From positions 32,001 through 96,000 of the IMG/VR virus record IMGVR_UViG_3300047170_000049: a stretch of DNA of 64,000 bases; one strand, 5' to 3'. Origin of the DNA: a virus. The notes below the pieces were generated by a model. That model was given only the letters and a program-made list of their open reading frames with translations. It was not told the origin of the DNA and made no database searches. This document shows, in pieces, positions 22,067-39,724 of the stretch; positions within the stretch are counted from its first letter, which is position 1; every line of letters starts with the position of its first letter. Made by a program: the position numbers and the translations under genes.

Positions 22067-23602
22067 TTATTTCTTACGTTCGATAATATCGAGCATATCT
22101 TTGATAGTGTCTTTGGGTTTAGGCTGTTCTTCTTTGGGTACCTCTTCCGACTTAGGAAGGTTAGGCTTTGGCATATTTTTAAGTTCAGCTAAAACTCTCT
22201 TAGCTTCTGGCTTTGCTTGTTCTTCAGGTAGTTTGCCCATTTTTGAAGTACCGCGACGTTTAGGTGTTTCACCCCTTGGGGCATGGACACCTTTTTCATC
22301 AGCCTTTTGCATATTCTCAGAATTCATTCGATTTTCTTTGGGTTCATCTTGAGTGGGGCCACCAGCGGCAGAATCGTGCGCTGGCATAAGTGGCTTACCC
22401 ATTTCACTCATTTGCATATCGCACTTATCGAGGCAACGTTTTAGAGCCTTGAGGTTATGCTGTATGGCGTTCTTTTGGAAAATCTTATGGCCTTCTTTTT
22501 GTTCAGCGGGTTTGTTGGCAATCATATGGTCTTCAACCAAGTGCTCAACATTTTCGCCTAATTTAGCATCTTGTTTTTCATCAGGATTAGCTTCACTCAT
22601 AAGAACCTGTGGTTTATTCAAACCGTCTTCTAATGACTCAGCTTTACCAAAGTGGAAAGCATCACGCATGGATTGCTGTGCAGCTTGAGCGCCTGATGGA
22701 GGTGGAGGTGGTGGTTGATTAGAACCGTCTTTTTGTAACTCCGACTTAGGAAGATTAGGTTTAGGCATTTGCTTCAATTGATTGAGCTTTGATTTGTGTG
22801 AAGCGATTGAAGGTACGCCGCTAGCTTGTTGCGCAGCACCAGCATGGCTTTGGCCAGAATTTGGTTGAACAGGAGTGTGAACCCCTTGTTGCATATCGGC
22901 TGGATTACCTTTTAATAGTTTATGCAATCCCTTTAGATGACGGTCGATAGGTTGTGCCATAATGTCTGCCTTTTGTAAGGTTTCTTCAATTGCTTGCAAC
23001 TTTTCTAATACGCTAGCCACGGTTGGCTTATCTTCTGCTTTTTCAAATAATGTTCCAGGGAGTCTGGTTTGAGGGTCAACTTTTTTAACTGGTTTTGGTT
23101 GTGGTTTTGGTTGTTCGGGCATTTTCTGTCCTGCAGCGGCAGCGCCTGCTTGTGCAAAACCATCAATAATGGCTTTAACTGGTTTTTTAACCATATCACC
23201 TAAAGATTTGTGCATTCCCATACCCATTCCCATATTAACTGAAATGTGAGGTGCGGTATTAGCTGGTTTGGCAGGAGCGCCAGTGGAAGTTCCACCAACT
23301 ACTGCGCCTTCGGATTTAGGAAGGTTAGGCTTAGGCATATGAATTAATTGATGCAATTGTTTCAAATGACTTTGTTTAGCTGAGTGATTCATAACCCTGG
23401 AAGCTGCAGCAACATCTCGTTTGGCAGAAACGGGTGTAGTCATCTTGTCAGAAAGTTGTTGGAGCTTGTTAGAGCTTCTGACTTCCATGCCAGCGGTCGA
23501 TTGACCTTTTACATCTGGTCTAGCTGGGTGGACACCTGCCTTATCCAAATCGTAGGATGGTTGAAACTTGTCTTCTTTTTTGAGGTCTTTTTTGTCTGCC
23601 AT
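22067..23602 (-). CDS. disordered repeat protein with three MPKPNLPKSE modules (putative processed head protein)
   Basis: Start MADKKD preferred; K/P/Q-rich; many LxK[A/S] sites. Confidence 0.7.
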   Translation of the reverse strand: MADKKDLKKEDKFQPSYDLDKAGVHPARPDVKGQSTAGMEVRSSNKLQQLSDKMTTPVSAKRDVAAASRVMNHSAKQSHLKQLHQLIHMPKPNLPKSEGAVVGGTSTGAPAKPANTAPHISVNMGMGMGMHKSLGDMVKKPVKAIIDGFAQAGAAAAGQKMPEQPKPQPKPVKKVDPQTRLPGTLFEKAEDKPTVASVLEKLQAIEETLQKADIMAQPIDRHLKGLHKLLKGNPADMQQGVHTPVQPNSGQSHAGAAQQASGVPSIASHKSKLNQLKQMPKPNLPKSELQKDGSNQPPPPPPSGAQAAQQSMRDAFHFGKAESLEDGLNKPQVLMSEANPDEKQDAKLGENVEHLVEDHMIANKPAEQKEGHKIFQKNAIQHNLKALKRCLDKCDMQMSEMGKPLMPAHDSAAGGPTQDEPKENRMNSENMQKADEKGVHAPRGETPKRRGTSKMGKLPEEQAKPEAKRVLAELKNMPKPNLPKSEEVPKEEQPKPKDTIKDMLDIIERKK

Positions 23603-23609
23603 ATAAACC

Positions 23610-24071
23610 TTATTTTTTATCTTTCGCTTCAATGACAACTGGAGAATTAACAAATTCAGGTTGTGTGGTCGTTAATGGAGCATTTTGAATCATAGGTTGA
23701 TTACCAATCCTAGGAGCAATGTCTTTGGCTTCCGATTTGGGTAAATTGGGTTTCGCCATATTCTTAAGGTGATTTAACAAACCACGGTGAATACTTTTAG
23801 CTTTTGCAGCATGTCTCTCAGGGTCACTGACTCGACCGTAGCCGTGTGCAATAACACCTGGAACTTTTGCATCGGCTCTGCGAACTTCAATACCGACATC
23901 GCTTACGCCTGGAGTAACAGTCTTTTGATTCTCTAGGGCATCACGGCCTTCGCTATCAAATTGTTTAAATGCTCCGCGAATCATTCTCTTCTCGGAATCA
24001 CTTACGGTCTTTTTTAGCTCCGCTAGTTTCACTAGACGTTCCAGTATTGCTTTCATCATTAGACTTTCCAC
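23610..24071 (-). CDS. putative head protein with one MAKPNLPKSE module (probable start 24059)
   Basis: Same module as neighbouring gene. Confidence 0.65.
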   Translation of the reverse strand: MESLMMKAILERLVKLAELKKTVSDSEKRMIRGAFKQFDSEGRDALENQKTVTPGVSDVGIEVRRADAKVPGVIAHGYGRVSDPERHAAKAKSIHRGLLNHLKNMAKPNLPKSEAKDIAPRIGNQPMIQNAPLTTTQPEFVNSPVVIEAKDKK

Positions 24072-24556
24072 TGACCAGATTTAAAATGATGAACAATATC
24101 GGGAATAGCATCCTTCTCAGAAGAATGAGCATTTGGCGACCTACCAATGACTGAACCATCGGACGATTGAACGTGTTGAACGCTCCATGGATTTTTGGGT
24201 GCAGTCATATCAAATTCCATGCGATAATGATTTTTTCCACCAGGCTGGCCAATATTGTATCTCAATATGTGACCATGCTTTTCTGGTTTAGAAGTTAGCA
24301 TTTTTAAGCCCATAGGTTGTTGACCTGCCATTTGTGGTTTTGGGTCTACAACTGCGAAAGGCTTGGGTTGATTTGGAATAACTGGTGCAGCGGGGCCTTT
24401 GGGTTGTAACATTCCATGAGGCTGTTGAGTCCAGTGTTCGTCACCAACGGCTTTTTCCATTAGCTCACTATTCTTAAGCGTCAACTGAATAGCGGCTTTT
24501 AAGTCCTTCAATTCAGAGAGTTTTTTGATGTGTTCAGCTAATGCTTTCTTATCCAT
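24059..24556 (-). CDS. putative head/internal protein
   Basis: Helical leader ending LMEKA, then His-rich domain; directly after late promoter. Confidence 0.6.
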   Translation of the reverse strand: MDKKALAEHIKKLSELKDLKAAIQLTLKNSELMEKAVGDEHWTQQPHGMLQPKGPAAPVIPNQPKPFAVVDPKPQMAGQQPMGLKMLTSKPEKHGHILRYNIGQPGGKNHYRMEFDMTAPKNPWSVQHVQSSDGSVIGRSPNAHSSEKDAIPDIVHHFKSGQWKV

Positions 24557-24567
24557 ATCCAGTATTA

Positions 24568-24598
24568 ATTAAGATTTGTACCTAACATATTGATTTTA
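24568..24598 (-). promoter_or_regulatory. late promoter motif copy 4
   Basis: ATTAAGATTT-GTACC-TAA-CATAT-TGATTT. Confidence 0.75.
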
Positions 24599-25615
24599 TT
24601 CATCATCTACGGGGTCAATAGGGTCCAAGGACCCACGCCAGCCTTGCATGTCAACTTCAGGCAATAAAGACGCTGGTGATTGCATACCATCAATGGTGAT
24701 GGTAGGTGCAATTCCTTGAATGCCTTTATCCGTGGTATCAGGCCAAGACATGCCAACTCTGCCACGAAGAGTGATTTGGCGATGCCACAATACGTTAGGG
24801 TCCTCAGGGGCACTGCGAGTTAAGCCATCATATGCAATGGTTCCAACTTCAAACCCACGAGCTTCAAAAAGAGTTTGCTTGTATTTTAAAAGAATGAACA
24901 TGAGGATTTGGAATAAGTACATTGTGTCAACCGCATCTGTGGTATGAACACCTAGGGTGTAGTTATTCCAGAAGTACAGGAACTTGCGAGTTTGAATAAA
25001 ATTATTCGTATTAGGTCGAATGGTACAACCATTCAGATTGGGTACTTTCCCTTGGGGAATTGTGATAATTAAGTTTTCTTCATCGAGAACAGTTTCAATG
25101 ACGTAAGCCACATCATTTACTTCATCGTAAACGAATTGACCTTCAAAAACATTAGTCAAGTCAACGTCGGGGCCGAAAGTAACTTGTCCAGTTTGAGGTA
25201 TTACTGCTAGAGGGGTTACTGGGCCTAATATTTTTTGAGGTTGTTGGTATGAGCCTAAAAACTCTTCTGGGGTAACATTGCGGGTCTCAAAACCATCGCC
25301 TAGGCCAGCTTTAGCTTGGTCTTCACTACCACCGTTTAATTCAATGGTAATGCAAGGGAATTTCACATGGTCATCAACACGATGAGCCATTACCACGAAG
25401 ATTTCTTTCTTCATGAATGCTAGAAACTTTTGAACTTCAGCTTTACCGTAGGACTTGTCGGTGTAGGGGTCAGTTAAGATTTGATTAGCAATATCATATA
25501 TATAGTTGGGATTGGCACGAATATCTGACAAGGCTGTTTTGATAGCCGTGAACAAGATTAAATCGTCCTGGAAAATCCCAGGAGTAGATGTGGGGGGATT
25601 AGTAAAATCAACCAT
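24596..25615 (-). CDS. putative tail completion/terminator (neck) protein
   Basis: FPCITIEL motif, acidic, positioned near sheath. Confidence 0.55.
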   Translation of the reverse strand: MVDFTNPPTSTPGIFQDDLILFTAIKTALSDIRANPNYIYDIANQILTDPYTDKSYGKAEVQKFLAFMKKEIFVVMAHRVDDHVKFPCITIELNGGSEDQAKAGLGDGFETRNVTPEEFLGSYQQPQKILGPVTPLAVIPQTGQVTFGPDVDLTNVFEGQFVYDEVNDVAYVIETVLDEENLIITIPQGKVPNLNGCTIRPNTNNFIQTRKFLYFWNNYTLGVHTTDAVDTMYLFQILMFILLKYKQTLFEARGFEVGTIAYDGLTRSAPEDPNVLWHRQITLRGRVGMSWPDTTDKGIQGIAPTITIDGMQSPASLLPEVDMQGWRGSLDPIDPVDDE

Positions 25616-25623
25616 ACTTCTAT

Positions 25624-25654
25624 ATTAAGATTTTGGCCTAAGTTGCAGATATTG
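25624..25654 (-). promoter_or_regulatory. late promoter motif copy 5
   Basis: ATTAAGATTT-TGGCC-TAA-GTTGC-AGATAT. Confidence 0.7.
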
Positions 25655-26422
25655 TTAGGTTTTTGACTGCATCTCTTGGATGAAAGCAGACCATAGAGCG
25701 TCTATCTTTGCTTCAGCTTCTTTAAAGGCACCAAGTGGCTTAGTTCCAGGGTGCCACCATTTACCAGTACCTTTTTGTTTTTCTGAAACAACACGGAAGG
25801 TAAAGATGTCGCGCATGACTTTAGTCTTGCCGTTTTTCATCTGCACTTCGCGTTGATAGATATTGACGCCTGCTAAGAGTGGAATCTTAGAACGTATGGA
25901 GTTGGCGAATTCCATATCGACGGTGGCAGCGGCGACTTTGCCTAATTTAGGCTTTCCGTCATCATCGAGTATGGTTTTATTTAGCTTAAGTTTTTTAAGT
26001 TCACTCTTAACGTGTTCAGCTAATTGCATTTCAGCACGAGACATATCTTGTGGTCGTTTATTGTGCTTGAAAGGAATGATTGCGTACCGCTTACCGTCTT
26101 TACCCACTTTAGACTTAGGGCCGTGAGTTAAGGCTTCAATCATGTCATGGGCAGGTTGACCGTCTTCAATCCAGTTGGCTTCAGGTTGAAGATAAACAAC
26201 CCAAACGCTATCATTTTCGCTACTAATTTTTAGAGCGTCCATGTAAGTGCTTAAAGATGAATGCAATGTGTGGGTGGCCTTGTCAGTGATAAACGCATGG
26301 GTTTCTAAAGCAATGCGTTTCAAACCCATCTTTGATTGCTCAATAAGGGATTCGGACATATTGTCGATAGTCTTGCCTAGAGCTTCTAGCTCCGCTTCTA
26401 TGCTTAAATCTTTTTTTGCCAT
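25655..26422 (-). CDS. putative neck/tail-completion protein
   Basis: WIEDG, YAIIPFKH, TFRVVS...WWHPG motifs typical of myophage neck proteins. Confidence 0.6.
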   Translation of the reverse strand: MAKKDLSIEAELEALGKTIDNMSESLIEQSKMGLKRIALETHAFITDKATHTLHSSLSTYMDALKISSENDSVWVVYLQPEANWIEDGQPAHDMIEALTHGPKSKVGKDGKRYAIIPFKHNKRPQDMSRAEMQLAEHVKSELKKLKLNKTILDDDGKPKLGKVAAATVDMEFANSIRSKIPLLAGVNIYQREVQMKNGKTKVMRDIFTFRVVSEKQKGTGKWWHPGTKPLGAFKEAEAKIDALWSAFIQEMQSKT

Positions 26423-29400
26423 TATTTTTTCTTCTTATTATCAGGATGGTTGGCAATTTGAAATTTTAAAGCCTGCAAGTCGTGATGGTCTTCTTCTCTG
26501 TTACCAGTATGAGACATTTTTTCTTCAAGTTCATCGTGGTCTTGCTGAAGTTCCTTAAGAGGTCTGATTTTTTCAGATTGTTGCAAGGGTTGACCTTGAG
26601 AACCTTCGTCGGGGTCATTCATGGTTGATAGAGATTGCCATGAACCATCAGGCTTTTTAATCTTTTCATTACCTGGACCATAAGTTCTCTCTGAACCTGG
26701 AGCGTAAACCTTCTTACCGTGAGTAATGGGTTTATCTTTTGGAGCGCTAATTTGTGGAGCTTGACCTTGCTGTTGCTGCGCTGGCGCTTGTTGTTCTTGG
26801 CCTGGTTGAGCATTGGGGTCTTGTTCTGGAGCTTGCAATTCATCGGGATTAATTTGCGCTTCTTTCATCGTAGTCATTAGAGACTGGATGATTTCTGAAA
26901 TTGCATTATACACATCAGGAGCTTGTGAACGTAGTTGTTCAATCAACATCTTGTTTTGGTCAAGATTTTGTAGCGTTTGCGCTAATTGAGCCTTAGTAGC
27001 ATCACTGATGGGTGATGGCGCAGGTTCGGCTTTACGAATAATATCTTTGTAAGTGGGCTTACCCTTAAACTCAGGATTATCTTGCGTGGGGAGTTCACCA
27101 TAATGGCCTTCTTGATATTTCATCGCCTTGGGAATCTTACCGTAACCTTCTTGCATATGTACTGGTAATGGAACTTCCAAATCAGGATGTTCGCCACCAT
27201 GTGATGCAGCATAGTCATTATGAAACTTAGTATAGGCTTCTTTTAATTGGTCCAAATGCCCAGGAGTAACTTCTTTGTTATTAGAAGGTACGATTTTGTT
27301 CTTTTGACCCCAACGTAGGATAGCTTTGCCGCCCTGTCCACCTTGACCTTCTTTTAACGCATCAATTTCTTCGATAACTCTATTAGGATGAACCTTAATT
27401 GATTGTTGTTGACCAGAAATTGGTGCCTTAGATTCAGGCTGCCAAATATGAATTGGAGTATCGCCTAAACCCTTGTTACGCATATGCTCTTTGAACGCTT
27501 CGTGAATAACTTCACTTGGATGACGCCCATTGAATGCAATTTCTTGAATTTTATTAAGATGGTCTTCTGGAAAATTATCTTTTGCACGTTCCATTGCATC
27601 GGCAGCTTGCTCAGGAGTGATTGCTCCAGTGCGAACGGCTTCCTTAGCTTGCTGTGCCGCTTTCTTAATAAGTGACTGACCTAAATCAGTTTGAACTTCA
27701 TCAACGTGGAAGCCTTCACCAGGATTACCAGTGAAACGCACCCAGCCTAATGTATTCTTTTTAACAGGGTGGCCAGAAGAGAATGTATGCTCTTGCAACT
27801 TACGGAATGTACCTAGAACACCAGCTTTTTGCATTTGTTGAAGTTGGTCTTCAGTGTAGTTCATTTGGAAAACATTTTGTTTCTTGTCGCTATGTCTTTG
27901 AGCGCCTTCCCAATCTGCAATTGAGGAATTGTAGGTGGTGGCAGGCATAGCATCAATGTGATTTTGAATGTCTTGTGAAGTAATCGTTCCTTTAGGACCG
28001 AAAAGCTTGTCAATTGCATTGGTGTTAACACCAGCGGCCTTGAAGTCTTGCTTCTTCATTTGTCCACCATTAGCAGCAACGTAATCTCTTAGTTGTCGTA
28101 ATGGGTGGGTTCCAAGCTTAACATTTACTTGGTTTTCATTCTTAGGGAAGCGATTAGCATAAACACTTTGAACGGCTTCACGAACATCTTCATTTGGATG
28201 ATTCGCTAAACTATCTACTTGTGGACGTGTAGCAGCATGATGACTAATAGCTTCAGCTTTTAATTTATCATTATCCCCACTTAAAGCATTTTGAATATCA
28301 TCTGGAGTAAGCTTAAATTTGTTATCAAAAATCTTCTTAGCAGTGTAACGGTCAGTATCGTTACTGTCTTTGGTAGCAGCTAAAGCCTTACGAGCATGTT
28401 CTTCATTTGCATTAGGATGGTCAAGTATAGTTTCAATATCTGAGTCATTGTCTTTAGCTATGGCTTGGTCCAACGCTCCATGAAGGTGTTCTGCATTGGC
28501 ATTAGGATTTTTAATAGCTAATTCTTTTAAAGTTTTACTGGCATTAGGATTAGCAATAACTTGAGAGATATGCTCTGGGCGCACATTATTATGGCGCATT
28601 ACATCTTCTTGAGCCTCTTCAGAATAATTGTCATTGTTGTTATCGGCCAAAACTTTGGAGATTAGTTCAGGAGGTAGGTTGGGGTGTTTGGCCGCTTCTT
28701 TACGAACCATACCAAGTGGATGCTTTAATCCTTGGTCTAATTGCTCAGGAGTTACATCGGTGGAGTTCTTACTCCATGGCTGCTTTATAGCCTTAACGAC
28801 ATGATTAGGTAGCCAATCTTCTTGTGAAGTGGCGTTCTCTAAATCATTTTCAAAAAGGTCATGAGTTCTTTGACTAACGTCATCGTTTATGGACTCATCG
28901 TAGTTTTCATACAACTGGTCAGGGGTTTGTTCATTATCAATCGCTTCTTGCCAAGCCTTGTCAGCTTCTGCATCGCGTTTGGCATATTCAGGATGGTCTT
29001 CAATACCAATACTATTGCTGTGATTTGCATAGTCAATAGTAGGAGGCTCTTGCTCTTCATTAGGGTCTAGATTTTGCTGACCATCTTTATATTCTGGGTT
29101 TGGACCATTCCAATCATATTTGTCAGCTAGATGTTCTTTCTTCCAGTCTTCTTTAGACTTATCGAAGTACGCATTAGAAAGTTCATCGTCATTGTAGTTG
29201 TCACTTATAAACGATTTCCAAGGATAGTTCTCGGCAGCATCTTCACGAGCTTCTTCGCTATAACGTTCCCACTTATCGTCTTCGTTCTCGTCACGAACAC
29301 GGTCTCTAAAGTCATCTAAAGCATACCCCTTACCATCATCATCGTTATCCCAATGTGATAGCATTTCAGTAGCGTGCTTGGGGTCAACTTCGGAGTTTTG

Positions 29401-30348
29401 AAAAAGATTATACTTGGAATCAAAATCACCATGATGTTTAATATGTTCAATAGCTTCAGGTGTTAGATGCCTACTTGCAGCTAATGATTGCATCATCTTT
29501 TTATCATAATGCTTACCATTAGTCCAATTATTCCATTTAGCAGCTTCCTCTGAATCCATATCACCAGGATTATAAATATCCTCTGGTGATTTTTCAGGTT
29601 GACCGCCAAGCATACCTAATTTGGCTTCAACATACGCCTTGCGACGTTCGGGTGGTAATTTATCTAACAAGCCGTTGAGGTCTGAGGAACTGAGACTGTG
29701 TGAGCGTGCTAAGAGTTTAGCCGCTGCATTTTCGTCAAGGTGCTGTGAGTTAGTAATAGACCCAGGTAATTTTTCCGATTCATAATTTTTTGATTGTAAA
29801 AGCTTATCGAAAAGATTCTTGGTCATTGCAGGATGATTGACCATTTGATTAGATATGGTGGCTTGTGGATTATCTAGAATTTGGTCTAAGTGTTGGCTGT
29901 TAAATAAAGGCTGCTTTGTTATATGGCTCAGGTCAACTTTGTTGTCAACATCTGCGCGTTTTGATTTTGCGCCATGCTCTTTAATAATTTTGCTGATTTT
30001 TTCTGGGGAAAGCTTCAAATATTCTATGGCGTTTTCTGCGTTACGCTTATCCCAATAATCATCGTCTTTATTTGTATTTTTAAGCTTCTCAGCTAGAGCG
30101 TCATAAATTTTATCATTATTTGCTGGAGTATCGTGTTGGTGACCCTTTAGCGCACTATAAAATTTAGTAATAGCAGATTCATGGTTATCTTCTGAAGAAT
30201 TAAAAGCGTTAGACAATAGGTCACGATATTCTTGAGGTGTGAAGTGCTCAGAATTAATGTATTTTTGTACTTGTGCTTCCTTTTCAGGATTACTGAGGTC
30301 AGCGCCAGTAAAAACACCATGTATTCTTTTTGTCTTAGCTTTTGGCAT
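26422..30348 (-). CDS. large putative internal virion (polyvalent) protein, 1308 aa
   Basis: HPN-type helical (LRV/HEAT-like) repeats, acidic region, LGWVRF...HVDEVQTD domain, RKAE site then helical APDVY domain. Confidence 0.65.
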   Translation of the reverse strand: MPKAKTKRIHGVFTGADLSNPEKEAQVQKYINSEHFTPQEYRDLLSNAFNSSEDNHESAITKFYSALKGHQHDTPANNDKIYDALAEKLKNTNKDDDYWDKRNAENAIEYLKLSPEKISKIIKEHGAKSKRADVDNKVDLSHITKQPLFNSQHLDQILDNPQATISNQMVNHPAMTKNLFDKLLQSKNYESEKLPGSITNSQHLDENAAAKLLARSHSLSSSDLNGLLDKLPPERRKAYVEAKLGMLGGQPEKSPEDIYNPGDMDSEEAAKWNNWTNGKHYDKKMMQSLAASRHLTPEAIEHIKHHGDFDSKYNLFQNSEVDPKHATEMLSHWDNDDDGKGYALDDFRDRVRDENEDDKWERYSEEAREDAAENYPWKSFISDNYNDDELSNAYFDKSKEDWKKEHLADKYDWNGPNPEYKDGQQNLDPNEEQEPPTIDYANHSNSIGIEDHPEYAKRDAEADKAWQEAIDNEQTPDQLYENYDESINDDVSQRTHDLFENDLENATSQEDWLPNHVVKAIKQPWSKNSTDVTPEQLDQGLKHPLGMVRKEAAKHPNLPPELISKVLADNNNDNYSEEAQEDVMRHNNVRPEHISQVIANPNASKTLKELAIKNPNANAEHLHGALDQAIAKDNDSDIETILDHPNANEEHARKALAATKDSNDTDRYTAKKIFDNKFKLTPDDIQNALSGDNDKLKAEAISHHAATRPQVDSLANHPNEDVREAVQSVYANRFPKNENQVNVKLGTHPLRQLRDYVAANGGQMKKQDFKAAGVNTNAIDKLFGPKGTITSQDIQNHIDAMPATTYNSSIADWEGAQRHSDKKQNVFQMNYTEDQLQQMQKAGVLGTFRKLQEHTFSSGHPVKKNTLGWVRFTGNPGEGFHVDEVQTDLGQSLIKKAAQQAKEAVRTGAITPEQAADAMERAKDNFPEDHLNKIQEIAFNGRHPSEVIHEAFKEHMRNKGLGDTPIHIWQPESKAPISGQQQSIKVHPNRVIEEIDALKEGQGGQGGKAILRWGQKNKIVPSNNKEVTPGHLDQLKEAYTKFHNDYAASHGGEHPDLEVPLPVHMQEGYGKIPKAMKYQEGHYGELPTQDNPEFKGKPTYKDIIRKAEPAPSPISDATKAQLAQTLQNLDQNKMLIEQLRSQAPDVYNAISEIIQSLMTTMKEAQINPDELQAPEQDPNAQPGQEQQAPAQQQQGQAPQISAPKDKPITHGKKVYAPGSERTYGPGNEKIKKPDGSWQSLSTMNDPDEGSQGQPLQQSEKIRPLKELQQDHDELEEKMSHTGNREEDHHDLQALKFQIANHPDNKKKK

Positions 30349-30351: not shown

Positions 30352-31356
30352 TTAGTCTTTCTTCAACAAGGTCATCAAAAGGTTATACTCAGGATTACTT
30401 TGGAGTAACTTCCTTTTAGCTTTGTGACGGGCCATGTGAGCTTTCATACCCTCATCGGCCTTATTCGCTTTTTCTTTAGCGTCATCTTCTGCACTAGACA
30501 TAAGTGCATTGTTTATGTCTTCACTATGGTCTGGGGTCTGGATAGTAGGCTGGACCTGTCCTTGCTTAATATCCGTAGCAATACCCACTAATGAAGATAC
30601 CACATTTACGACCGATTCGTAGATTTCTGGTGCTTCCGTTTTAACTTTATCTAACATTGGCTTATTTTGCTGCACACTTTGTAAAGTCTGCATTAACTGT
30701 TGTTTTAATTCAGGTGGCAAAGCATTCCCAGGTGAAGCGGGTTGACCAGAATCTGGTTGTTGTTGACCAGATTGTGGTTGTATTGACTGGGAAGGGTCTT
30801 GAGCCACGGCAGCGGGTGCTTGTGGCTGTGCAGGTTGTACGGACGCACCTGAAGGGTTTAATTGTGCAGGTTGAGGGTCGGTTGAATTAGTTTCGCGTAT
30901 TAGTTCTGGATTAGGTGTGCTTAGGTCTGAGGCTTCTAGACCTTGTTCAGGGTAAAGCTCATCAGTCTCATCTTCCATGGGCTCTTCATTTTCAAATTCC
31001 ATGTCAGGTTGATAAACTTTAATACCATGGGCATCGTTAGCTTCTAAGTTAGCTAATGCTTTTTCAGCATCTTCTAGTGAGTCGCCTACCCCAATTAAAA
31101 GGTCTTTATCTAATACAATTTTGAATTGTTTTTCAATGTCGTTAAGGGCATCAATATTGTCGATGTCTAATTGTACGACAGTATTGCCTTCGAGCATTGC
31201 TACAACTTCGCCTTGCTTCTGTGCAATGACAGAACGTATTAGGCGATGCAGCATTTCCTTGTGGCGCATAAGCCACTTAGCGTCGGTTATGTTACGAGCT
31301 TCTTCTAGGAAAGGTGCTGATATGATGGCGACAATTTTATTTTCTTCCATTGGCAC
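30352..31356 (-). CDS. degenerate mCpol/GGDEF-fold protein with Q/P-rich linker
   Basis: GEVV...IGVGDSLEDAEKAL...IKVY resembles mCpol; catalytic DGD/GGDE not present. Confidence 0.55.
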   Translation of the reverse strand: MPMEENKIVAIISAPFLEEARNITDAKWLMRHKEMLHRLIRSVIAQKQGEVVAMLEGNTVVQLDIDNIDALNDIEKQFKIVLDKDLLIGVGDSLEDAEKALANLEANDAHGIKVYQPDMEFENEEPMEDETDELYPEQGLEASDLSTPNPELIRETNSTDPQPAQLNPSGASVQPAQPQAPAAVAQDPSQSIQPQSGQQQPDSGQPASPGNALPPELKQQLMQTLQSVQQNKPMLDKVKTEAPEIYESVVNVVSSLVGIATDIKQGQVQPTIQTPDHSEDINNALMSSAEDDAKEKANKADEGMKAHMARHKAKRKLLQSNPEYNLLMTLLKKD

Positions 31357-32365
31357 GACTCATCAATGATTTATAAAGCATCTCTATAGAATCCGTGTCC
31401 CAATCTTCCTTGAATGACATTGAAATGGCTGCGCCTTCAGCTTTAATGACAGGTTCTGATAGTGCTTTGAAGCAAGCGCATCTTACTGGTGTGCCGCTTT
31501 TAATTTCTGACTCACCACAATCTGGGCATGTGCTATTTTGTGACTTGTTAAGGCTCATCTTAAGAGACTTTACGAACGGATTTGGCACTTTAGGCCCCGT
31601 TTGTGGAGCTTTAGCGGCAGTTCCAGGAGCTTTAAGGTTTGGCAGCTTCATCTTAGAAGGCTTAAGGTTGGCATCTGTAGCTGGGGTCTTATCACCCATG
31701 ATGCCAGTCTTAGGTTCTTTTACGCCACCAGCACTACCAGCTTTTGGAGGTGCAGGCATTGCAGGCATCAATCCTGCTTTATCAAGTTCGTCGGTCTTAA
31801 TTGTTAGTTCAGGAGCTTTAGATTCTTTGGAGTGAGCCACAACACGCATAAGGTCATCAACCTTATCGTTAAGCATCTGCATCTGGGTATCATTAAGCTT
31901 TTGCTCTAACTCGTCAATTCGTTCATGTACTGAAGAATCTTCTTTGGCTGATTTTTCTTCTGGTTTCGATTTTTCGCTTTGGTCTGGTCCCATTTGAGAA
32001 TCTTCATAAAGCTCAAATGTAGACATGATGTGTGCAGCAAGTTGTGGCAGTGCTGTAAGTCTAAATTCATGTATGATTTTTCCACCGTCACGGATGTGTC
32101 CGTTGTAAACGTCGGCGGTTTGTTTATTAACTAGAAGAAAGCAATTTTCTTTGAATGGAAGGTCAATCTCTTTATTTCCGTGCTCAGGAATAGGCTTTAA
32201 CTCTTTAATTAGGAACGAAATTAAAGCTTTAGGTACAACCTTCAGACTTGCATGAAGCTCTTGTAAATCCACTACGGATTTCGTAGGGATTTTGTCCAAG
32301 GCTTTCGCCAAGGCTTCGTATGGTTGTTCGCCCATTAGGGCTTTTAGAAGCTTAATCTGTTCCAT
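31337..32365 (-). CDS. putative head protein with C-terminal Zn ribbon
   Basis: CPDC...CAC; LDKA, LNKS, FVKS sites. Confidence 0.6.
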   Translation of the reverse strand: MEQIKLLKALMGEQPYEALAKALDKIPTKSVVDLQELHASLKVVPKALISFLIKELKPIPEHGNKEIDLPFKENCFLLVNKQTADVYNGHIRDGGKIIHEFRLTALPQLAAHIMSTFELYEDSQMGPDQSEKSKPEEKSAKEDSSVHERIDELEQKLNDTQMQMLNDKVDDLMRVVAHSKESKAPELTIKTDELDKAGLMPAMPAPPKAGSAGGVKEPKTGIMGDKTPATDANLKPSKMKLPNLKAPGTAAKAPQTGPKVPNPFVKSLKMSLNKSQNSTCPDCGESEIKSGTPVRCACFKALSEPVIKAEGAAISMSFKEDWDTDSIEMLYKSLMSRANGRK

Positions 32366-33177: not shown

Positions 33178-33186
33178 GGAGGGTAT

Positions 33187-33954: not shown

Positions 33955-34818
33955 TTATCTTGGTCCTACGTTGCCGCCAGTAGGGGCATTGATTTCGGCG
34001 TCGGGTACGTCTTTCTCCGTGCGATTACCTAGGAAAATGTAATCGGCTTGAACTTGAGCTTGCATTGGCATTTTCTGCATTGAGTAATCGCCAGTGTAAG
34101 CGTTCATCTGTGGGAAGATACGGATTTCGTGCATCATCTGCTTGACGTAAAAATAAGGCTTATATTTGTAACGAACAGAAATTAGTTTGGGTTGGTCACT
34201 TGTGTTATTCCAACCAGGTTGTTTACCACCAGGAATCCACGCAATGTGTCCTTGAGCGTCGATATTGAAATCTTGGCCTTCGGTATAGAACTTACCATCG
34301 GAGTCGGTGACATATTCAATTTCTGAAATTTGGAATTGAGTGCGGTCAATGCCAGTCATCGAGTGGGTGACTTTTTCAAAGTTAGAATGGAAGAATTCTG
34401 CGGGGCATTCGCAAGGAATTAACTTATCGTATTCAGTAAACGATGCAAGTTTGGTCGTGCCCTTGTAGTAGCGATTAAATGTGAGCATCGCACTAGAGCT
34501 ACCGTAGAAACCTGCAGGGATGTATGCTAGTTGTTTAGAGTTGTTTGTAAACACTCCCCAAACTTGTCCAGCGCACATATAAACAAATCCATTTTCACAG
34601 TGAGCGGTGGCGTTGCCATCGAAATCGTGATTATGGGAATGACGAATGTCACCATCAGTAACTTGGCCTAAGACGCAAGGGATTGCCTTGTAGTGCCAGA
34701 ATAATACACCATTTTGAATTAAGAAATTATCTTGACCAATGGAATCGACGGTGACCGCGTTCCAAGGTTCTTCATAATTAATTAATACAGCATTTACCGC
34801 TGGTTTTACATCGGCCAT
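33955..34818 (-). CDS. putative head-closure/neck protein
   Basis: PC...HC.NGF segment, YTEGQDF...W...P...SVRY motif typical of neck proteins. Confidence 0.6.
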   Translation of the reverse strand: MADVKPAVNAVLINYEEPWNAVTVDSIGQDNFLIQNGVLFWHYKAIPCVLGQVTDGDIRHSHNHDFDGNATAHCENGFVYMCAGQVWGVFTNNSKQLAYIPAGFYGSSSAMLTFNRYYKGTTKLASFTEYDKLIPCECPAEFFHSNFEKVTHSMTGIDRTQFQISEIEYVTDSDGKFYTEGQDFNIDAQGHIAWIPGGKQPGWNNTSDQPKLISVRYKYKPYFYVKQMMHEIRIFPQMNAYTGDYSMQKMPMQAQVQADYIFLGNRTEKDVPDAEINAPTGGNVGPR

Positions 34819-34821
34819 TTA

Positions 34822-35466
34822 TTACTCCCAGAAATTTCCAGGCAAGTGCCCTTTGGGTACGTTTTTATTTTTCATACGGTAATCATCTTCCAATTTTGAA
34901 CCATGGAAAGGCTGAGGTTCATTGAAGTAGACTTTACCATCGGGGCCTTGTTCTTTGTTGTACATATGTTGAGCACCAAAGGCTTCATGGGCTTGTTGTG
35001 GATTCATGCCTGCCATTTGATAGTGCTTAATTGCTTCGTTCTTATGATACTCACCAGCCAAGTGATTATTAATATCTTTACCTTGGTCGTAGTTATCTTT
35101 ATGGAAGTTTGAAAAGTGAGCGTGCCAATTAGCAATTTTCTTATGGTTCTCAGGAGTGGAGGCGTGTGGCATGGAGCGAAGCTCTGCATCGTGCTGTATG
35201 GACGAGACGTTGCCCCATTGTGGGTTGAATTGCCTATCGGTAGACTTGTAAAGATTCTCGTGCCAGCTAATACCGTTTTGAACCTTATCCGCCATACCCT
35301 TGGCAACGGCACGGTGAGCGGCTTGTCCTAGGACTCTTAGTTCGCCTGAAGCTTTCTTCAAGGCCATAATGTTTAATCCACCCTTGGTACGGATGTGATA
35401 AATAGGGTCGGTCTTGTAAACGCCGACTTGTTCCATAGTGTGAATGTCTTGTTTGTTTAAATTCAT
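34822..35466 (-). CDS. putative head protein
   Basis: TKGGL...AAHRAVA N-domain, LYKS site, His-rich C-domain; after late promoter. Confidence 0.6.
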   Translation of the reverse strand: MNLNKQDIHTMEQVGVYKTDPIYHIRTKGGLNIMALKKASGELRVLGQAAHRAVAKGMADKVQNGISWHENLYKSTDRQFNPQWGNVSSIQHDAELRSMPHASTPENHKKIANWHAHFSNFHKDNYDQGKDINNHLAGEYHKNEAIKHYQMAGMNPQQAHEAFGAQHMYNKEQGPDGKVYFNEPQPFHGSKLEDDYRMKNKNVPKGHLPGNFWE

Positions 35467-35487
35467 ATTTTCCCCTAAAGGACTATA

Positions 35488-35518
35488 ATTAAGATTTTAG
35501 GTTAACCCTTTGATTTTA
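35488..35518 (-). promoter_or_regulatory. late promoter motif copy 7
   Basis: ATTAAGATTT-TAGGT-TAA-CCCTT-TGATTT. Confidence 0.75.
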
Positions 35519-37646
35519 TTGCATCTTTGACGGCTGGAATACCCCATACCCAAATAGAATTAATCAATGAATCAGGGTATTTAGACTGTTTTACCAATTC
35601 TTTGATTTCTTCTAGACGGTATAGTTCAGGGCTTGGGTCTAACTTATATTTAAACATAAGTTCTTTGATGAGGTTTGGGTCTAGACGTAGAATCCAGTCG
35701 CGAAGTTCTTCTGCGACCTTGGGATTTCTAATACGAGGTAGGCCCTGGAACTTAGTTTCATTATTAGAGTTTTGCTTAACGTCATTTTCTACGCGCAAGA
35801 TGTATGGGATGAAGATGTCCGTGTCTTTAGAAGGGTCGAAGGCAAGATTGGCAAAAGAAGACCCGTGGTCAATCATTTGCAAGCCCTTGCCGTTTGTCAT
35901 GACATTACCGCCATGAGAATCAGCTTCGCCTAGGATGTAGAACATGGTGGCTATTTTATGGACAACACCTTCACGGGTGAGTTCGCCAATGAGTGCCTTG
36001 AATTCATGTTCGTCATCTTTTTCAAGGTCTTGCGCTATCTTGTAATCGTCGGGTAGCATTTTGATTGCTACGGCATAGTGAGGCTTACCATCTTTTTGGA
36101 TTTCACCCATAACTGAATGTGGAATGTAATCAACCAAACCAAACACACTATGGGCTAGTTTATAGAAACAGGCTTCTTTAATGAATTGAGGGCCAGTATC
36201 TTTTAAAGACTTAACACCAGGCTTATTCTTAGGTTCGAGTTTTAAGAGCCATGAGTCTTTAGGTTCGTCGCCGACGATAAAGGAATCTGTGGTGAAATGG
36301 CCATAGTGACTTAGGTCATGAATCTTCTCGTCACGGATTAGCGAATTGATATTTTGTGTTGCTACTATGGAGTAATCATCTTGAGTCAGTGGCTTAAAGA
36401 ATTTAATGCCAGCAAACTTTTGTTCAATCTTTTCTAGAAGACCTTCTTCTTTAAGGAAGGAGTCCAGGCTCGAACCTAGATGTTTATTTTCGTTCTTTGT
36501 CATCTTAGGTTTAGCATCGGCAACTTCACCGTAATTATGTATGTTGCCTTTTGCATCACGTTGTGGTTTAGTCTGAAACTTCAGATTTTTAGAGTTGATA
36601 TTGAAACTTGCAGTGGGATGGCCAACAACAATTTCATTTTCATGCGAATGGGGATGTTCTTGGCCTTGGACGGTCATGTGATGACCAGAGTGAAGGACTT
36701 GTTTCAGTGGCACCCATTTGGACATTACCACCCCATGATTATCTGGTTGACCTTCAATATGCCCACGATTATATGCGAACCTCGCTGCCATTTCTGGGTC
36801 CGTTGTCCACGACGTTAAGTGTGCTGTGGGTAATTTTATTTTTTTATCGTCAACCTCGTTAGTTTCGGGGTTATGACCTACTGCATCTTTAATTGCTTTG
36901 CCATAATGCCCACCGACCCCACGATAAAGTTTGACATGAGGCTCACCATGAAAATAACGTTTAGGTGTGAATTTATCTTGCATTATTTCAGCTTGAACTT
37001 TTTTAGCGTACTCATCTAGGTGAGGAAGAACATCAGAGGCTTGCATGAATTTATTGGGGTACTCAAATTTAGTATTTTTTAAATGTTCTAAGGTTTCTTT
37101 GTCATGACCCATCAATCCATCAGGGTTGAGATAAGCTTCGTGACTATTGGCAGATTCGCCACGGTGGTCCGTTACCGTTTCAGGTTGACCCGTGAAATGA
37201 GACTTAATGGTCGCGAAATGACCAGGGCTAACCGCTCTTTCGTAGCTGGACCAAAAATTCCCAACCTTCTTCATGTTTGCCAAGGCTTCATCGGGCGCAA
37301 ATTTGGGATGGGTTTGTATTGCGTTGGTGACGTACTGGTCTTCACGACCTTCGTGACCCACACGCCTTAGTGTGGCAGCATCAGCATGCTTAGGGATGTG
37401 TCCAGCGTATTCAAATAGAAACGAATTGAGATTATCTTTTTGATTAGGACGAGTCTTAAGATGGTCTAGGACTTTGTGAACTGCAGCATTAGGCATACCT
37501 TCGCCGCCGTCATTGGGATTATTGGCCGAAGGAAGGCGCTGCCAAATGTCGTAGTTAGCTGGCACACGTTTAGCATGCTCAATGGCTTTATCCCAGTCAC
37601 CACGATGGATGGCTTCAAAAGTTGCTTTCTCATTTGAGTCAGACAT
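35502..37646 (-). CDS. multidomain protein: ADP-ribosyltransferase-like + HipA/PI3K-like kinase
   Basis: KLYRGV...TSWTTD...ENEIVV (R-S-E ART); LKLE...KEAC...DSHGGNVM...IDHGSSF (kinase). Confidence 0.75.
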   Translation of the reverse strand: MSDSNEKATFEAIHRGDWDKAIEHAKRVPANYDIWQRLPSANNPNDGGEGMPNAAVHKVLDHLKTRPNQKDNLNSFLFEYAGHIPKHADAATLRRVGHEGREDQYVTNAIQTHPKFAPDEALANMKKVGNFWSSYERAVSPGHFATIKSHFTGQPETVTDHRGESANSHEAYLNPDGLMGHDKETLEHLKNTKFEYPNKFMQASDVLPHLDEYAKKVQAEIMQDKFTPKRYFHGEPHVKLYRGVGGHYGKAIKDAVGHNPETNEVDDKKIKLPTAHLTSWTTDPEMAARFAYNRGHIEGQPDNHGVVMSKWVPLKQVLHSGHHMTVQGQEHPHSHENEIVVGHPTASFNINSKNLKFQTKPQRDAKGNIHNYGEVADAKPKMTKNENKHLGSSLDSFLKEEGLLEKIEQKFAGIKFFKPLTQDDYSIVATQNINSLIRDEKIHDLSHYGHFTTDSFIVGDEPKDSWLLKLEPKNKPGVKSLKDTGPQFIKEACFYKLAHSVFGLVDYIPHSVMGEIQKDGKPHYAVAIKMLPDDYKIAQDLEKDDEHEFKALIGELTREGVVHKIATMFYILGEADSHGGNVMTNGKGLQMIDHGSSFANLAFDPSKDTDIFIPYILRVENDVKQNSNNETKFQGLPRIRNPKVAEELRDWILRLDPNLIKELMFKYKLDPSPELYRLEEIKELVKQSKYPDSLINSIWVWGIPAVKDAIKSKG

Positions 37647-39724
37647 TATTTATCCCAGTTGTGCGTCGCGTTCATCATAACGTGCTTATCGTCAATAAGT
37701 ACGTCTTGTGCAGGTTTAACATCATGCTTCTCGTTTTTAACTGAAGCAGGTGAACGTTCGGCGTTCATTGCAAAGTTGCCTAATTTCTTAAATTTGTTAA
37801 ATTTTACCACATAAGGATGGTTCTTGATTTCATCGGGGGTAGCATCAAGTGCGTGGGTAATCCCATTGTACCAAGCGTAAGCCGCTTTATCATGGTCGTT
37901 ACCAAAGCGGTTTAAAAGCCTATGCCAATGGGCATGGACTAATTGCTCTTCCATTTTCTTATTTCCTAAAACCAACTTGGAAATTTTCTCTTGGTCCATC
38001 TTAGGGTCCATTGAGCCAAGTTCAGGATAGAGCTTTTTAATGTGGGGATTCTTCTGGGCAGTCTCAACAATAGTAATAGGCATAAGGCCGTAAGAGCCTA
38101 TGGCTTTCGTGCCAGTGTTGATGCCGTGTACAACTTCAGCGTGCTTTAAATTTTTACCGTTAGAAGATTCAATATTCTTGATGGCATCTAAATCGCCCTT
38201 GGCAGTGTCAACTACTTGGATACCAGGCTGACTCTTATCTTGGCTACTTAAAGCCGTAGGAGCGCCGAGCATTGACATTGCCGTGATAACGTTCATAGCT
38301 TTTGTCTTCATGTTCTTATCCAACCCTTCTGATAAAAGTGTATCATAAGGCTGGCTTAAAGTCTCTATTTTGCTTATTTCCGTATTTTTCCTAACGTTTT
38401 CAATGGCTTTGAGCTTATCTTTTTTAGTAAGCTCCGCTTTCTTAGTGTCTTCAGTGGCTAAAGCCCAGTCAGGAAGCAAACCAGCTTTCTGGTCAGCGTA
38501 AATTGTTTGCGCGGGGTTAGCTCTATTGTGCGCTGCGTGCTTACCAAAGTTAACCCATGAGTTCTGGCCGCGTGTTTCTGAGGTCAGGGCCTTTTGTGCT
38601 TGAGGTGAATACATCTGCTTATGGCTAAGGTATGCGTTCTCTTCGCCTTTGGGACCAAATCCATAACCTTCTTTAGCGTGGCCAAAATAATCGTGGACTA
38701 TACGGAAGAGGTCGTTAGCGGGTAAGTCTTCGCCATTATGAATAACGCCTGAAGGTTTGAGCATTGGGTGATTGGAGTATAGTGAATCTCCAGAACCAAA
38801 ACCTTGTTCGGTAGGGTAGTACCACATATGATTGTTTTGGCGAACGTCTTGGAGCATATCTTTAGATGATTTATAGGGATTAGCCATGTCTGGTCTAATC
38901 TTACTGATTTTTAAACCAGCATTTTTAATGTGATGAAATTGTTCTGCCGTTTCATTGATTAGTGCATTGTAGGCACGTTTAGTTTCAGGATGGTCAGGGG
39001 TGTGGGGCATGGCTTCGTAGGCCGCTGCAATGTTCTTAGCACGAGGCACGTTGACTTCTGCTTGGGTGTCTGGATGATTTAAAGTCAAACCTTTCGACTT
39101 GGCGTAATTGTTAGCGACGCTTCTAATTTTAATATCGGGTTGAGTTGGGGTAGGTGGCTTGAACGCATCTGCCTTGCGAAGGTTACGGTACTCAATCTCG
39201 CCCTTGGCCATCTTATAGCCATTGGCATTAGGCTGCTTGTCAGACCAAAGGACTTTATCTTCTTTCCAAAGCTCTAATGGCTTAACCTTGACGTTTAATT
39301 TGTGTTGGGGCATTCCCGCTTGGACTTTATCCCAAAGGTCCTTATCCACCGTTATATGAGGCTGGAACGTGGGAAATTTATCTGGGCCATAATGGTCTTG
39401 AAGCTTCTTGTTGGCTTCTTCCATATGTTTGATACCAGGGCCTACGAGCTTAAGGACGTGCCATGTCTTACCTTCTGGGGTATTAAACTTATGGGGCACT
39501 AGCTGGAATTGGTCAGGAGGGGTTGTATTGAGTTGATTTAGGTGGTGTTCCATTTGCTTCACGTCGGGCTCATGGGCTCCTAAGTTTCTTAGGGTGACGT
39601 GGTACTTACCGCCATTTTCTGGATTGATAGCTTGGCCGTTGATATGAACGGGCCACATCAAATAGTGCTCTTTCCACGCTGGGTCTTGCGCTTTTACATT
39701 TGAAACACTAGTCTTCGTGGGCAT
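37646..39724 (-). CDS. multidomain protein: 2H phosphoesterase + HDxxGH domain + lytic transglycosylase-like
   Basis: HVTL and HITV; FRIVHDYFGH; IESSNG...AIGSYGLMP...YAWYNG. Confidence 0.75.
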   Translation of the reverse strand: MPTKTSVSNVKAQDPAWKEHYLMWPVHINGQAINPENGGKYHVTLRNLGAHEPDVKQMEHHLNQLNTTPPDQFQLVPHKFNTPEGKTWHVLKLVGPGIKHMEEANKKLQDHYGPDKFPTFQPHITVDKDLWDKVQAGMPQHKLNVKVKPLELWKEDKVLWSDKQPNANGYKMAKGEIEYRNLRKADAFKPPTPTQPDIKIRSVANNYAKSKGLTLNHPDTQAEVNVPRAKNIAAAYEAMPHTPDHPETKRAYNALINETAEQFHHIKNAGLKISKIRPDMANPYKSSKDMLQDVRQNNHMWYYPTEQGFGSGDSLYSNHPMLKPSGVIHNGEDLPANDLFRIVHDYFGHAKEGYGFGPKGEENAYLSHKQMYSPQAQKALTSETRGQNSWVNFGKHAAHNRANPAQTIYADQKAGLLPDWALATEDTKKAELTKKDKLKAIENVRKNTEISKIETLSQPYDTLLSEGLDKNMKTKAMNVITAMSMLGAPTALSSQDKSQPGIQVVDTAKGDLDAIKNIESSNGKNLKHAEVVHGINTGTKAIGSYGLMPITIVETAQKNPHIKKLYPELGSMDPKMDQEKISKLVLGNKKMEEQLVHAHWHRLLNRFGNDHDKAAYAWYNGITHALDATPDEIKNHPYVVKFNKFKKLGNFAMNAERSPASVKNEKHDVKPAQDVLIDDKHVMMNATHNWDK

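Follow-up and report, generated by a model that had tools for sequence, protein, structure and literature searches.

We analysed a 64,000-nucleotide stretch of viral DNA (the window: bases 32001-96000 of the 159,288-bp IMG/VR virus record IMGVR_UViG_3300047170_000049) which encodes phage head proteins together with a block of late genes at window positions 22067-39724. A short lysine motif, in its strict form [LMI]-x-K↓[SA]-[ED] (the arrow marks the predicted cut), is shared by head proteins of this phage and by proteins of the block. We conclude that the motif is very probably the cleavage site of the prohead protease, because it is enriched in scaffold proteins, has a conserved counterpart at the N-terminus of the major capsid protein (MCP) and aligns with the experimentally annotated Lys-Ser cut of the capsid protein Cps of Listeria phage A511, whose protease is homologous. 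It is also supported that the motif marks the inter-domain linkers of modular multi-enzyme late proteins. Going one step further, we consider it somewhat probable that the head protease cuts this polyvalent cargo at the linker lysine sites inside the prohead, and that the resulting fragments are released into the cell with the DNA.

Judged by sequence comparison and gene order, the window holds the late module of a myophage with a 159-kb genome, a relative of Myxococcus phage Mx1 (OR576727). Its capsid protein is 55% identical to the MCP of Mx1, the next capsid-protein matches being SPO1-like Bacillus phages at about 27% identity, and the module from head to sheath is collinear with that of Mx1. 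Neither a megablast search against cultured phages nor a single-protein scan of IMG/VR returned a close relative; an alignment-based scan with the MCP recovered at least 106 related IMG/VR contigs, many of them 150-180 kb in length. The order on the minus strand is terminase (58323-60161), portal, protease, scaffold, MCP, nucleotide-metabolism genes, the block (39724-22067), sheath (18911-21709) and tail tube (18405-18890). The distance from capsid to sheath varied from 11 kb to 32 kb in five relatives.

The lysine motif in head proteins and cargo linkers

The motif was derived blind from scaffold proteins. The gene directly upstream of the MCP in related loci was taken as the scaffold, yielding 69 non-redundant proteins, and all patterns of the form 'a.bc' were counted and compared with per-protein shuffles. 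L.KS (181 versus 13 expected) and L.KA (113 versus 21) ranked at the top, followed by M.KS (68 versus 7) and I.KS (47 versus 7). At P2' of the scaffold sites, 66% of residues were Glu and 12% Asp (78% together), resulting in the strict motif given above. L.KN, L.KT and M.KG were moderately enriched while T, F or Y at P3 were not, and a scaffold-derived matrix supported L.KN, M.KN and M.KG but not T.KA. L.KE was depleted, so the scaffold motif does not reflect helical or coiled-coil periodicity. The scaffolds of relatives typically carry 4-10 [LMIV]-x-K-[S/A/T] sites. In case of the window, the 281-aa scaffold (51381-52226, minus strand), assigned by its position directly upstream of the MCP and by its composition, holds three strict sites, namely LKK↓AE (52116-52130), LAK↓SE (51681-51695) and LQK↓SE (51540-51554).

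The MCP (460 aa, 49996-51378, minus strand; phrog_752) begins with MIEQLEALKK↓ALEAGG and thus has a putative 10-residue propeptide, encoded at 51349-51378 and ending in LKK↓A. Nearly all of the 76 loci with a readable MCP N-terminus share this arrangement, in which a variable leader of 8-15 aa ending in L-x-K-[AT] is followed by LEAG...AAP...GxALQxEDL. The GenBank record of A511 annotates mature Cps from residue 24 onwards, after ...EDALK↓SFTTGYG (K23↓S24), and this cut and K10↓A11 of the window MCP lie at most one residue apart in the alignment. The portal (673 aa, 55253-57274, minus strand; portal PHROGs) ends in a tail with two strict sites, which lie close together in LNK↓SEGLTK↓AE (55406-55438); the Mx1 portal has three such sites, but N-terminally. 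The gene at 54423-55253 was tried as a MuF/SPP1 gp7-type head protein on account of a C-x-x-C ... H-P-N-C-R-H pattern, an assignment that was dropped as neither Pfam nor PHROGs supported it.

The prohead (head-maturation) protease is a 319-aa protein (52809-53768, minus strand; phrog_1028, E 3e-11). Its catalytic part comprises approximately residues 1-200, with H47 and S137 (GFSVEGS) invariant in 20 members of the clade. It aligns with the head-maturation protease of A511 across QLGFS[IV]EG (E 1e-9) and belongs to the same PHROG family, and the syntenic gene of Mx1 is annotated as prohead protease; searches of Pfam and of PDB sequences gave no match. Besides an LHK↓SA site, the protease contains a copy of the MCP N-arm (LSGLKK↓AISAGGMGATPSALSSGPALQKEGL; residues 224-254, 53007-53099, minus strand) which is 58% identical to MCP residues 5-35 and begins right behind an L-x-K site. 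Such a copy is also present in most clade proteases examined, in Mx1 (locus L002, 13725-13811) and in A511 (locus L110, about 7950-8050), where the protease matches the MCP family phrog_752 over the N-arm stretch. Based on these comparisons, the N-arm junction is a probable self-cleavage site and capsid-binding handle. As a side observation, the copy may dock the protease, plus any fused partner, in the prohead.

We then counted strict sites over all 231 called genes of the genome, again relative to per-protein shuffles. The 212 proteins that belong neither to the head core nor to the block contained 7 sites where 8.0 were expected. In contrast, 5 versus 0.76 expected were found in the five head-core proteins and 8 versus 1.65 in the 14 block proteins, for which the maximum in 300 shuffles was 6. 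The looser core L.K[SA] was enriched in two smaller block proteins (31337-32365, 5 versus 0.65 expected; 34822-35466, 2 versus 0.11). In the complete relatives G2 and G5, the excess resides mostly in the scaffold and pre-sheath proteins, the remainder being near chance. Core sites in Mx1 exceeded expectation in the scaffold (4 versus 0.5), the portal (3 versus 0.4), the orthologue of 31337-32365 (4 versus 0.28) and a 1479-aa protein (5 versus 1.1). Tail proteins showed no site excess.

The sites in the large block proteins lie at domain joints. The 692-aa polyvalent protein at 37646-39724 (minus strand), modelled with AlphaFold2 at a predicted local distance difference test score (pLDDT) of 77, consists of a 2H phosphoesterase domain (residues 17-163, 39236-39676), a domain referred to here as 'anchor' (193-446, 38387-39148) and an SLT domain (503-656, 37757-38218). 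It has one strict site, LRK↓AD (P1 184, 39167-39181), the relaxed sites MAK↓GE (P1 174) and LDK↓N (P1 470), and TKK↓AE (P1 429). The 714-aa polyvalent protein at 35502-37646 (minus strand; pLDDT 85) comprises a helical N-domain, an ART-like domain (about 229-358, 36573-36962) and a PI4K/HipA-like kinase (417-704, 35535-36398), with a single relaxed site, MTK↓NE (P1 384, 36489-36503). Segments with pLDDT below 50 were residues 164-192, 426-429 and 447-505 of the former and 192-198 and 385-408 of the latter protein. MAK↓G, LRK↓A, TKK↓A and LDK↓N fall within these linkers and MTK↓N at the edge of one. The same linkers coincide with breakpoints of domain shuffling, which is seen among the relatives G1, G2 and G3 and Mx1. 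G1 and G3 both have the SLT domain of 37646-39724 between the two halves of the 35502-37646 orthologue, and in G2 the 2H and anchor domains occur in reverse order.

The flanks of the anchor domain show the same placement. In 119 homologues, we counted 26 strict sites within the 20 residues preceding the anchor, against 2.8 expected; the region just behind it had 15 against 4.4, and its interior 4 against 30. The corresponding site densities per 1000 residues are 10.7, 3.9 and 0.15. The sequence around the flanking sites is not conserved. Of 23 homologues of 35502-37646, 9 have a site where the ART-like domain ends, and there MTK↓NE of the window aligns with MRK↓SE, LRK↓SE, IKK↓SE and IRK↓SE; a site 10-20 residues ahead of the kinase was seen in 8 of 17. 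All six core sites of the 1479-aa Mx1 protein are located between Pfam or homology envelopes. Anchor homologues that lack the lysine motif, from another phage lineage (P0076, P0089, P0110, P0111, P0124 and P0127; L090 10001-12817), often have a Gly/Ala-rich hydrophobic stretch ending in [DE]-A-E-A-x-P-L-D before the anchor. This stretch takes the place of the lysine motif and may be a different kind of joint or a membrane segment; the one contig retrieved for such a homologue encodes a portal of the P22 type, and no protease was evident within 10 kb.

A preliminary description of this DNA had listed lysine sites in the head proteins and at domain junctions of the block proteins, and had suggested checking their enrichment in late proteins and at AlphaFold domain boundaries as well as domain swapping among relatives. 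Every listed motif is present in the protein to which it was assigned, and the enrichment was borne out, unevenly across the block. In the two modelled proteins, each of the five sites falls inside a low-confidence linker or borders one, and the swapping breakpoints in G1, G2 and G3 coincide with site-bearing linkers. Only TKK↓AE is rejected as a site, because the scaffold-derived matrix does not support T.KA.

Further information on the location of the cargo comes from protease fusions. Of the 27 clade proteases recognised in the fetched loci, 15 are at least 536 aa long, most of these long forms measuring 1100-1570 aa. The protease domain comes first, followed in most cases by the capsid N-arm copy and then by a long extension. 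Pfam analysis of six fusions showed that the extension ends in a PI3/PI4-kinase domain in four and in a GGDEF domain in two. Such kinase- or GGDEF-ending proteases (660-1570 aa) are encoded at L021 2670-6518, L036 2049-6770, L042 2396-6484, L053 3714-8027, L040 4281-8075 and L062 4832-6829, and the Mx1 protease is a 1239-aa form. Nine fusions carry a kinase homologous to the kinase of 35502-37646 (BLAST, E down to 8e-12). Since a prohead protease acts inside the prohead, its fusion partners, including this kinase family and GGDEF, should be found there too.

Proposed cargo processing in the prohead and competing explanations

We propose that the serine prohead protease of this phage, which is of the A511/SPO1 type, most likely cuts after the lysine in [L/M/I]-x-K↓[S/A]-[E/D] and also accepts N, T or G at P1'. 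Within the prohead, it would shred the scaffold with its three strict sites, trim approximately 10 residues off the capsid protein as well as the portal tail, and cut itself just before the capsid N-arm copy. Between four conserved neck genes, the clade has inserted fast-changing polyvalent late genes that are apparently transcribed from a common late-promoter element. Their products combine unrelated enzyme domains through disordered linkers, and in this phage they include the 2H + anchor + SLT protein, the ART-like + kinase protein, an mCpol-like protein and a 1308-aa repeat protein, each of the latter two with a helical module, and the KPNLPK↓SE proteins. These proteins would co-assemble with the scaffold, be cut at their linkers into separate enzymes and exit with the DNA, after which the SLT domain may attack the cell wall while the remaining enzymes engage targets of the host. 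Cleavage at the motif, presence in the head, ejection and the countering of host defences are all steps that we infer. For SAM lyase, NUDIX, ART and kinase domains, roles in host take-over have been described before.

Several observations weigh against this reading. Two disordered pre-sheath proteins (22067-23653 and 23610-24071) hold six of the eight strict block sites, the remaining two being LRK↓AD in 37646-39724 and IRK↓AE in 26422-30348. The large enzymes are thus sparsely equipped, with one strict site in the 1308 aa of 26422-30348, one in 37646-39724 and none in 35502-37646, and none of the three shows an excess of the looser core L.K[SA]. For the 93 anchor homologues that have a domain upstream, the 30-residue stretch ahead of the anchor contains a strict site in 26, a relaxed site in 29 and none in 38; with a strict site in just 26 of 93, cutting may be partial or optional. 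Site counts are further inflated over independent events by kinship among the homologues, and Lys-rich linkers favour chance motifs containing K. The leucine is at P2 in A511 and at P3 in the window motif. The ART call has an R / S / E-x-E pattern as its sole basis, with no Pfam match and with whole-model structure searches filled by the kinase. Further, the cargo genes sit among neck genes, which leaves room for a location in the neck or tail, and no virion proteome for the Mx1-like clade was found in the literature searched. Anti-defence roles, finally, are argued by analogy only, to Acb1-type 2H enzymes, T3 SAM lyase and T4 Alt.

The main rival explanation, which we regard as unlikely, is that the sites serve for trimming only, removing short N-terminal leaders or a C-terminal targeting module while the multi-domain chains stay largely intact in the head. 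The low number of strict sites in the large enzymes and the 38 of 93 anchor homologues without a pre-anchor site would be expected in this case. Trimming is also in agreement with the short leaders ending in L.K↓[AS] in the MCP, 31337-32365, 23610-24071 and the protease, and with the site that immediately precedes the shared C-terminal module of 26422-30348 and of its relatives. N4 vRNAP and P1 DarB, which are packaged as large chains, count on the same side. What separates trimming from cargo release is the recurrence of sites at internal enzyme joints, specifically between 2H and anchor, between SLT and kinase in G1, between ART and the next domain, and between the GNAT, ART, NUDIX and SLT domains of Mx1.

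The two other rivals are lesser ones. It is improbable that the linker motif is left uncut, as a by-product of Lys/Ser/Glu-rich linkers or as a docking motif, with the enzymes being ordinary late cytoplasmic proteins outside the virion. The linkers are indeed rich in K and several of the sites listed in the preliminary description are not individually significant. However, the per-protein shuffles control for composition and the motif is at chance level in the 212 other proteins, while around the anchor, amid non-conserved sequence, sites are depleted 7-fold inside the domain and enriched approximately 10-fold just before it. Relatives in which the prohead protease is fused to the kinase family of 35502-37646, and the presence of an SLT domain, which fits a virion protein, likewise speak against purely cytoplasmic enzymes. 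Least probable of the three is that the cargo is virion-borne in the neck, tail lumen or baseplate and processed by a different protease, such as the C1-type peptidase encoded at 17523-18323: the genes do lie among gp88-gp91-type neck genes just upstream of the sheath, and a papain-like peptidase gene follows the tube gene, but the motif is common to scaffold, MCP and protease, which meet only in the prohead, relatives have protease-kinase and protease-GGDEF fusions, and the tail proteins lack a site excess.

Cargo proteins, neck genes and late-strand organization

Sequence searches with the block proteins returned little: the sole Pfam match was a sub-threshold 2H, PHROGs gave few family matches, mostly to families of unknown function, and PDB sequence and profile searches gave nothing significant. 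In case of 37646-39724, the 2H domain shows HVT and HIT motifs and matches PF13563 at E 1.5e-4, below the gathering score. Its fold matches Usb1, LigT and the rotavirus VP3 phosphodiesterase (Z 8.3, root-mean-square deviation 3.6, 129 residues aligned), and it resembles the fold class of the anti-CBASS nuclease Acb1, which the structure search lists weakly. The SLT lytic transglycosylase domain reaches Z 12.5 to MltC. The anchor domain is strongly conserved, with 892 homologues fused to many enzymes, and its partners include GNAT, ART-PolyVal, mCpol, NUDIX, PI3/PI4 kinase, SLT, DUF3293/SAM lyase, DUF5661 and DUF6321. H241, D293, D338 and H368 are invariant and H344, D345 and E383 nearly so. 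The anchor corresponds to no Pfam family, and no match to it was listed in structure searches with the whole three-domain model, which barely tested that part; in the ESM Atlas, the anchor and the conserved part of 26422-30348 match unnamed viral clusters only. The anchor is probably an undescribed enzyme. It occurs alone in cluster C mycobacteriophages (Cali, Rizal gp102), and a cyanophage homologue lies under a gene annotated as 'RelA/SpoT'.

The kinase of 35502-37646 reaches Z 18.8 to PI4KIIalpha. In its beta-rich ART-like region, R242, S279, E336 and E338 are invariant in 23 homologues, and a viral library lists a mycobacteriophage 'ADP-ribosyltransferase' polyprotein and Alt for the protein, in matches not assigned to one domain. 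The window's own proteins have no Pfam ART-PolyVal match. Hence, of the domain calls made in the preliminary description, 2H phosphoesterase, transglycosylase and PI3/4-kinase-like hold, mCpol-like does so more tentatively, and the ART call stays with the residue pattern discussed above.

The mCpol-like protein (30352-31356, minus strand) has an N-domain (residues 1-135, 30952-31356), which a P/Q-rich spacer separates from a helical module at the C-terminal side (212-278, 30523-30723). With jackhmmer, run on a small database, residues 20-124 of the N-domain were linked to residues 310-414 of P0049, overlapping the mCpol match of the latter (E 3e-16). The window protein itself has no direct Pfam match, and its Mx1 orthologue matches mCpol (PF18182) at E 4.6e-4, below the cutoff. 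The 1308-aa protein (26422-30348, minus strand) is built from a repeat region, a conserved region (817-1108) and a module (1107-1185, 26794-27030). Its strict site, IRK↓AE (P1 1106, 27025-27039), directly precedes the module and is retained as IRK↓SE in the G3 orthologue. A 1229-aa cargo protein of G1 carries Pfam LRV/HEAT repeats, to which the repeats of 26422-30348 are similar by eye only. The helical module of about 70 aa (..LxQTLQxxxQNKxML..AP..Y..) is common to 30352-31356 and 26422-30348, which are otherwise unrelated. It was found in the four relatives where it could be traced, often directly behind a lysine site, and by this distribution it is a candidate packaging or anchoring module.

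Two smaller proteins were already noted for their core sites. The conserved 342-aa protein (31337-32365, minus strand) consists of a folded N-domain, a disordered middle and a C-terminal Cys-rich, zinc-ribbon-like domain. Its five L.K[SA] sites include LDK↓AG and, just before the Cys domain, LNK↓SQ (31538-31552), a site retained as [LMV]xK↓[SN] in five orthologues. The variable 214-aa protein (34822-35466, minus strand) carries LKK↓AS and LYK↓ST (35239-35253), and its G1 orthologue has NLFK↓SE at the aligned place.

Upstream of the sheath, three small or disordered proteins of 165, 153 and 528 aa (24059-24556, 23610-24071 and 22067-23653; together 22067-24556, minus strand) form the end of the block. 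A module described as 'helix + KPNLPK↓SE' is present in four copies on the minus strand (23730-23744, 23309-23323, 22739-22753 and 22145-22159), so that LPK↓SE occurs three times in 22067-23653 and once in 23610-24071. Further sites are LQK↓AD (22964-22978, minus strand), MQK↓AD (22298-22312, minus strand) and MEK↓AV in 24059-24556. The KPNLPK↓SE module is retained in G2 and in G1, where it is fused to the 1229-aa DUF6321/LRV protein. In Mx1, the region of the inserted genes encodes the 1479-aa GNAT + ART-PolyVal + NUDIX + SLT protein. The Mx1 protein in the pre-sheath position (L002 37603-39282) has a weak SAM-lyase/DUF3293 match (E 7.6e-5, below cutoff) and two N-terminal L-x-K↓S sites.

The cargo genes are interspersed with four neck or virion genes, all on the minus strand and without strict sites: an A511 gp88-type neck or virion gene at the upstream edge of the cargo insertions (40694-41602; phrog_772), a gp89-type virion gene (33955-34818; phrog_1004), a gp90-type neck gene (25655-26422; phrog_16819, a secondary match for gp90) and a gp91-type neck gene (24596-25615; phrog_1000). 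The last three are not cargo. Direct BLAST of these genes against A511 was not significant, and their equivalence is based on PHROG families and gene order. The A511 order is kept in the window, where the four genes are dispersed across 17 kb; they are conserved in most relatives compared, and the genes inserted between them differ from phage to phage. The preliminary description had treated 22067-39724 as one system; with three neck genes interleaved and 40694-41602 just outside, this delimitation does not stand.

The 9-mer AATCTTAAT is a likely late-promoter element, given its number, strand and position. It occurs in 12 exact copies, all on the minus strand, where 1.5 were expected. Nine copies lie within 21745-58296 (starts 58288, 53778, 42506, 39760, 35488, 32804, 25624, 24568 and 21745) and three in the tail module (starts 4943, 3973 and 2148). 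Most copies are located in gaps between genes, including those directly upstream of the protease gene, the sheath gene and five block units. Late expression of the block, presumed in the preliminary description, finds its sole support in this element.

Between the capsid gene and the neck genes, the late strand also carries three genes judged from inspection of the sequence and, in part, from PHROG or BLAST matches. They resemble a dCMP deaminase (42575-43075), a calcineurin-like phosphoesterase (47257-47979) and a thymidylate synthase (48199-49053). Mx1 has a thymidylate synthase and a dNMP kinase in the equivalent place between its capsid and neck genes. The papain-like (C1-type) peptidase gene at 17523-18323 (phrog_16701) directly follows the tail tube gene.

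Relation to known systems and significance

Iyer, Burroughs, Anand, de Souza and Aravind (2017, J Bacteriol; PMC5512222) described polyvalent proteins, for which they proposed capsid packaging and processing by peptidases. These are long chains of unrelated enzyme domains, among them ART, NUDIX, GNAT, lysozyme/SLT, kinase and nucleotide-signalling domains, which are encoded in the head-morphogenesis region and predicted to be injected with the DNA (PMC5512222). The block proteins resemble them in several respects. Disparate activities are found on one chain in 37646-39724 and 35502-37646, the block shares its strand and late-promoter element with terminase, portal, protease and MCP and lies between MCP and sheath, and domains are shuffled combinatorially, with homologues and the Mx1 orthologue carrying Pfam ART-PolyVal. 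Since the block proteins fit this class, they do not constitute a new system as the preliminary description had suggested, and in T4, phiKZ, 201phi2-1 and SPN3US the cutting of internal or ejected proteins by the head protease is already established (PMC5694885). The 2017 study emphasizes zincin-like metallopeptidases embedded in the chains and found the assemblin-like (prohead) peptidase at C-termini only (PMC5512222). Here, in contrast, processing would occur in trans by the head protease at a lysine motif common with the scaffold, and the fused protease of the clade is N-terminal and followed by the capsid N-arm copy. A term search of the main text of PMC5512222 found neither 'mCpol' nor 'DUF3293'.

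In T4, enzymes and anti-restriction proteins (IPI-III and Alt) enter the prohead and are ejected later, after trimming by the very protease that degrades the scaffold and processes the capsid protein (PMC5694885). The T4 protease gp21 is of a different lineage and cuts after Glu (L/I-x-E), unlike the window motif with Lys at P1, and it removes an N-terminal tag of 10-20 residues (the capsid targeting sequence) from single-domain proteins without separating the domains of a polyprotein. In phiKZ, 201phi2-1 and SPN3US, the prohead protease cuts the portal and many head-internal and ejected proteins at a short consensus (Ali et al. 2017, PMC5694885), and several sites per substrate are common (PMC5694885). 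These giant phages (Thomas et al. 2010, 2012) differ in their A/S/G-x-E motif, in their S80 family protease and in the removal of long N-terminal propeptides. Nor are their substrates described as strings of exchangeable enzymes with sites in between, and the cuts were measured there while they are predicted here. A511 and the Herelleviridae share with the window phage a homologous protease and capsid protein, the N-arm copy in the protease, the order of the four neck genes and a Lys cut at the aligned position. In A511, however, the neck genes are contiguous with no cargo polyproteins in between, and the leucine occupies P2. Viewed against these systems, what is new is the lysine grammar common to scaffold, MCP, protease and cargo linkers in a large uncultured clade. 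Equally new are the fusions in which an N-terminal protease is followed by a capsid N-arm copy, and a neck cassette of the A511 type into which cargo genes have been inserted.

In conclusion, polyvalent phage proteins are widespread, and their entry into the capsid and their disassembly have so far been largely a matter of conjecture. The occurrence of the same lysine motif in scaffold, capsid propeptide, protease junction and cargo joints provides a checkable rule, and with Mx1, a phage of Myxococcus xanthus, a cultured member exists. Should the rule fail for the cargo, the motif still marks the scaffold proteins of this clade. If the cargo is indeed cut at its linkers, this would explain how injected enzymes (2H phosphoesterase, NUDIX, SAM-lyase-like, ART, kinase and cyclase) can be swapped so freely. 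It would also make injected effectors predictable from sequence alone and offer a tag-and-cut design for loading foreign proteins into phage heads. More tentatively, and with doubt outweighing our confidence, the head protease of this clade may double as a general device for loading and releasing cargo, with the N-arm copy importing fused partners and a five-residue lysine grammar freeing any spliced-in enzymes within the capsid. If so, these phages would hold their injected effectors as a plug-and-play arsenal, which evolves as domains are shuffled at the cut sites.

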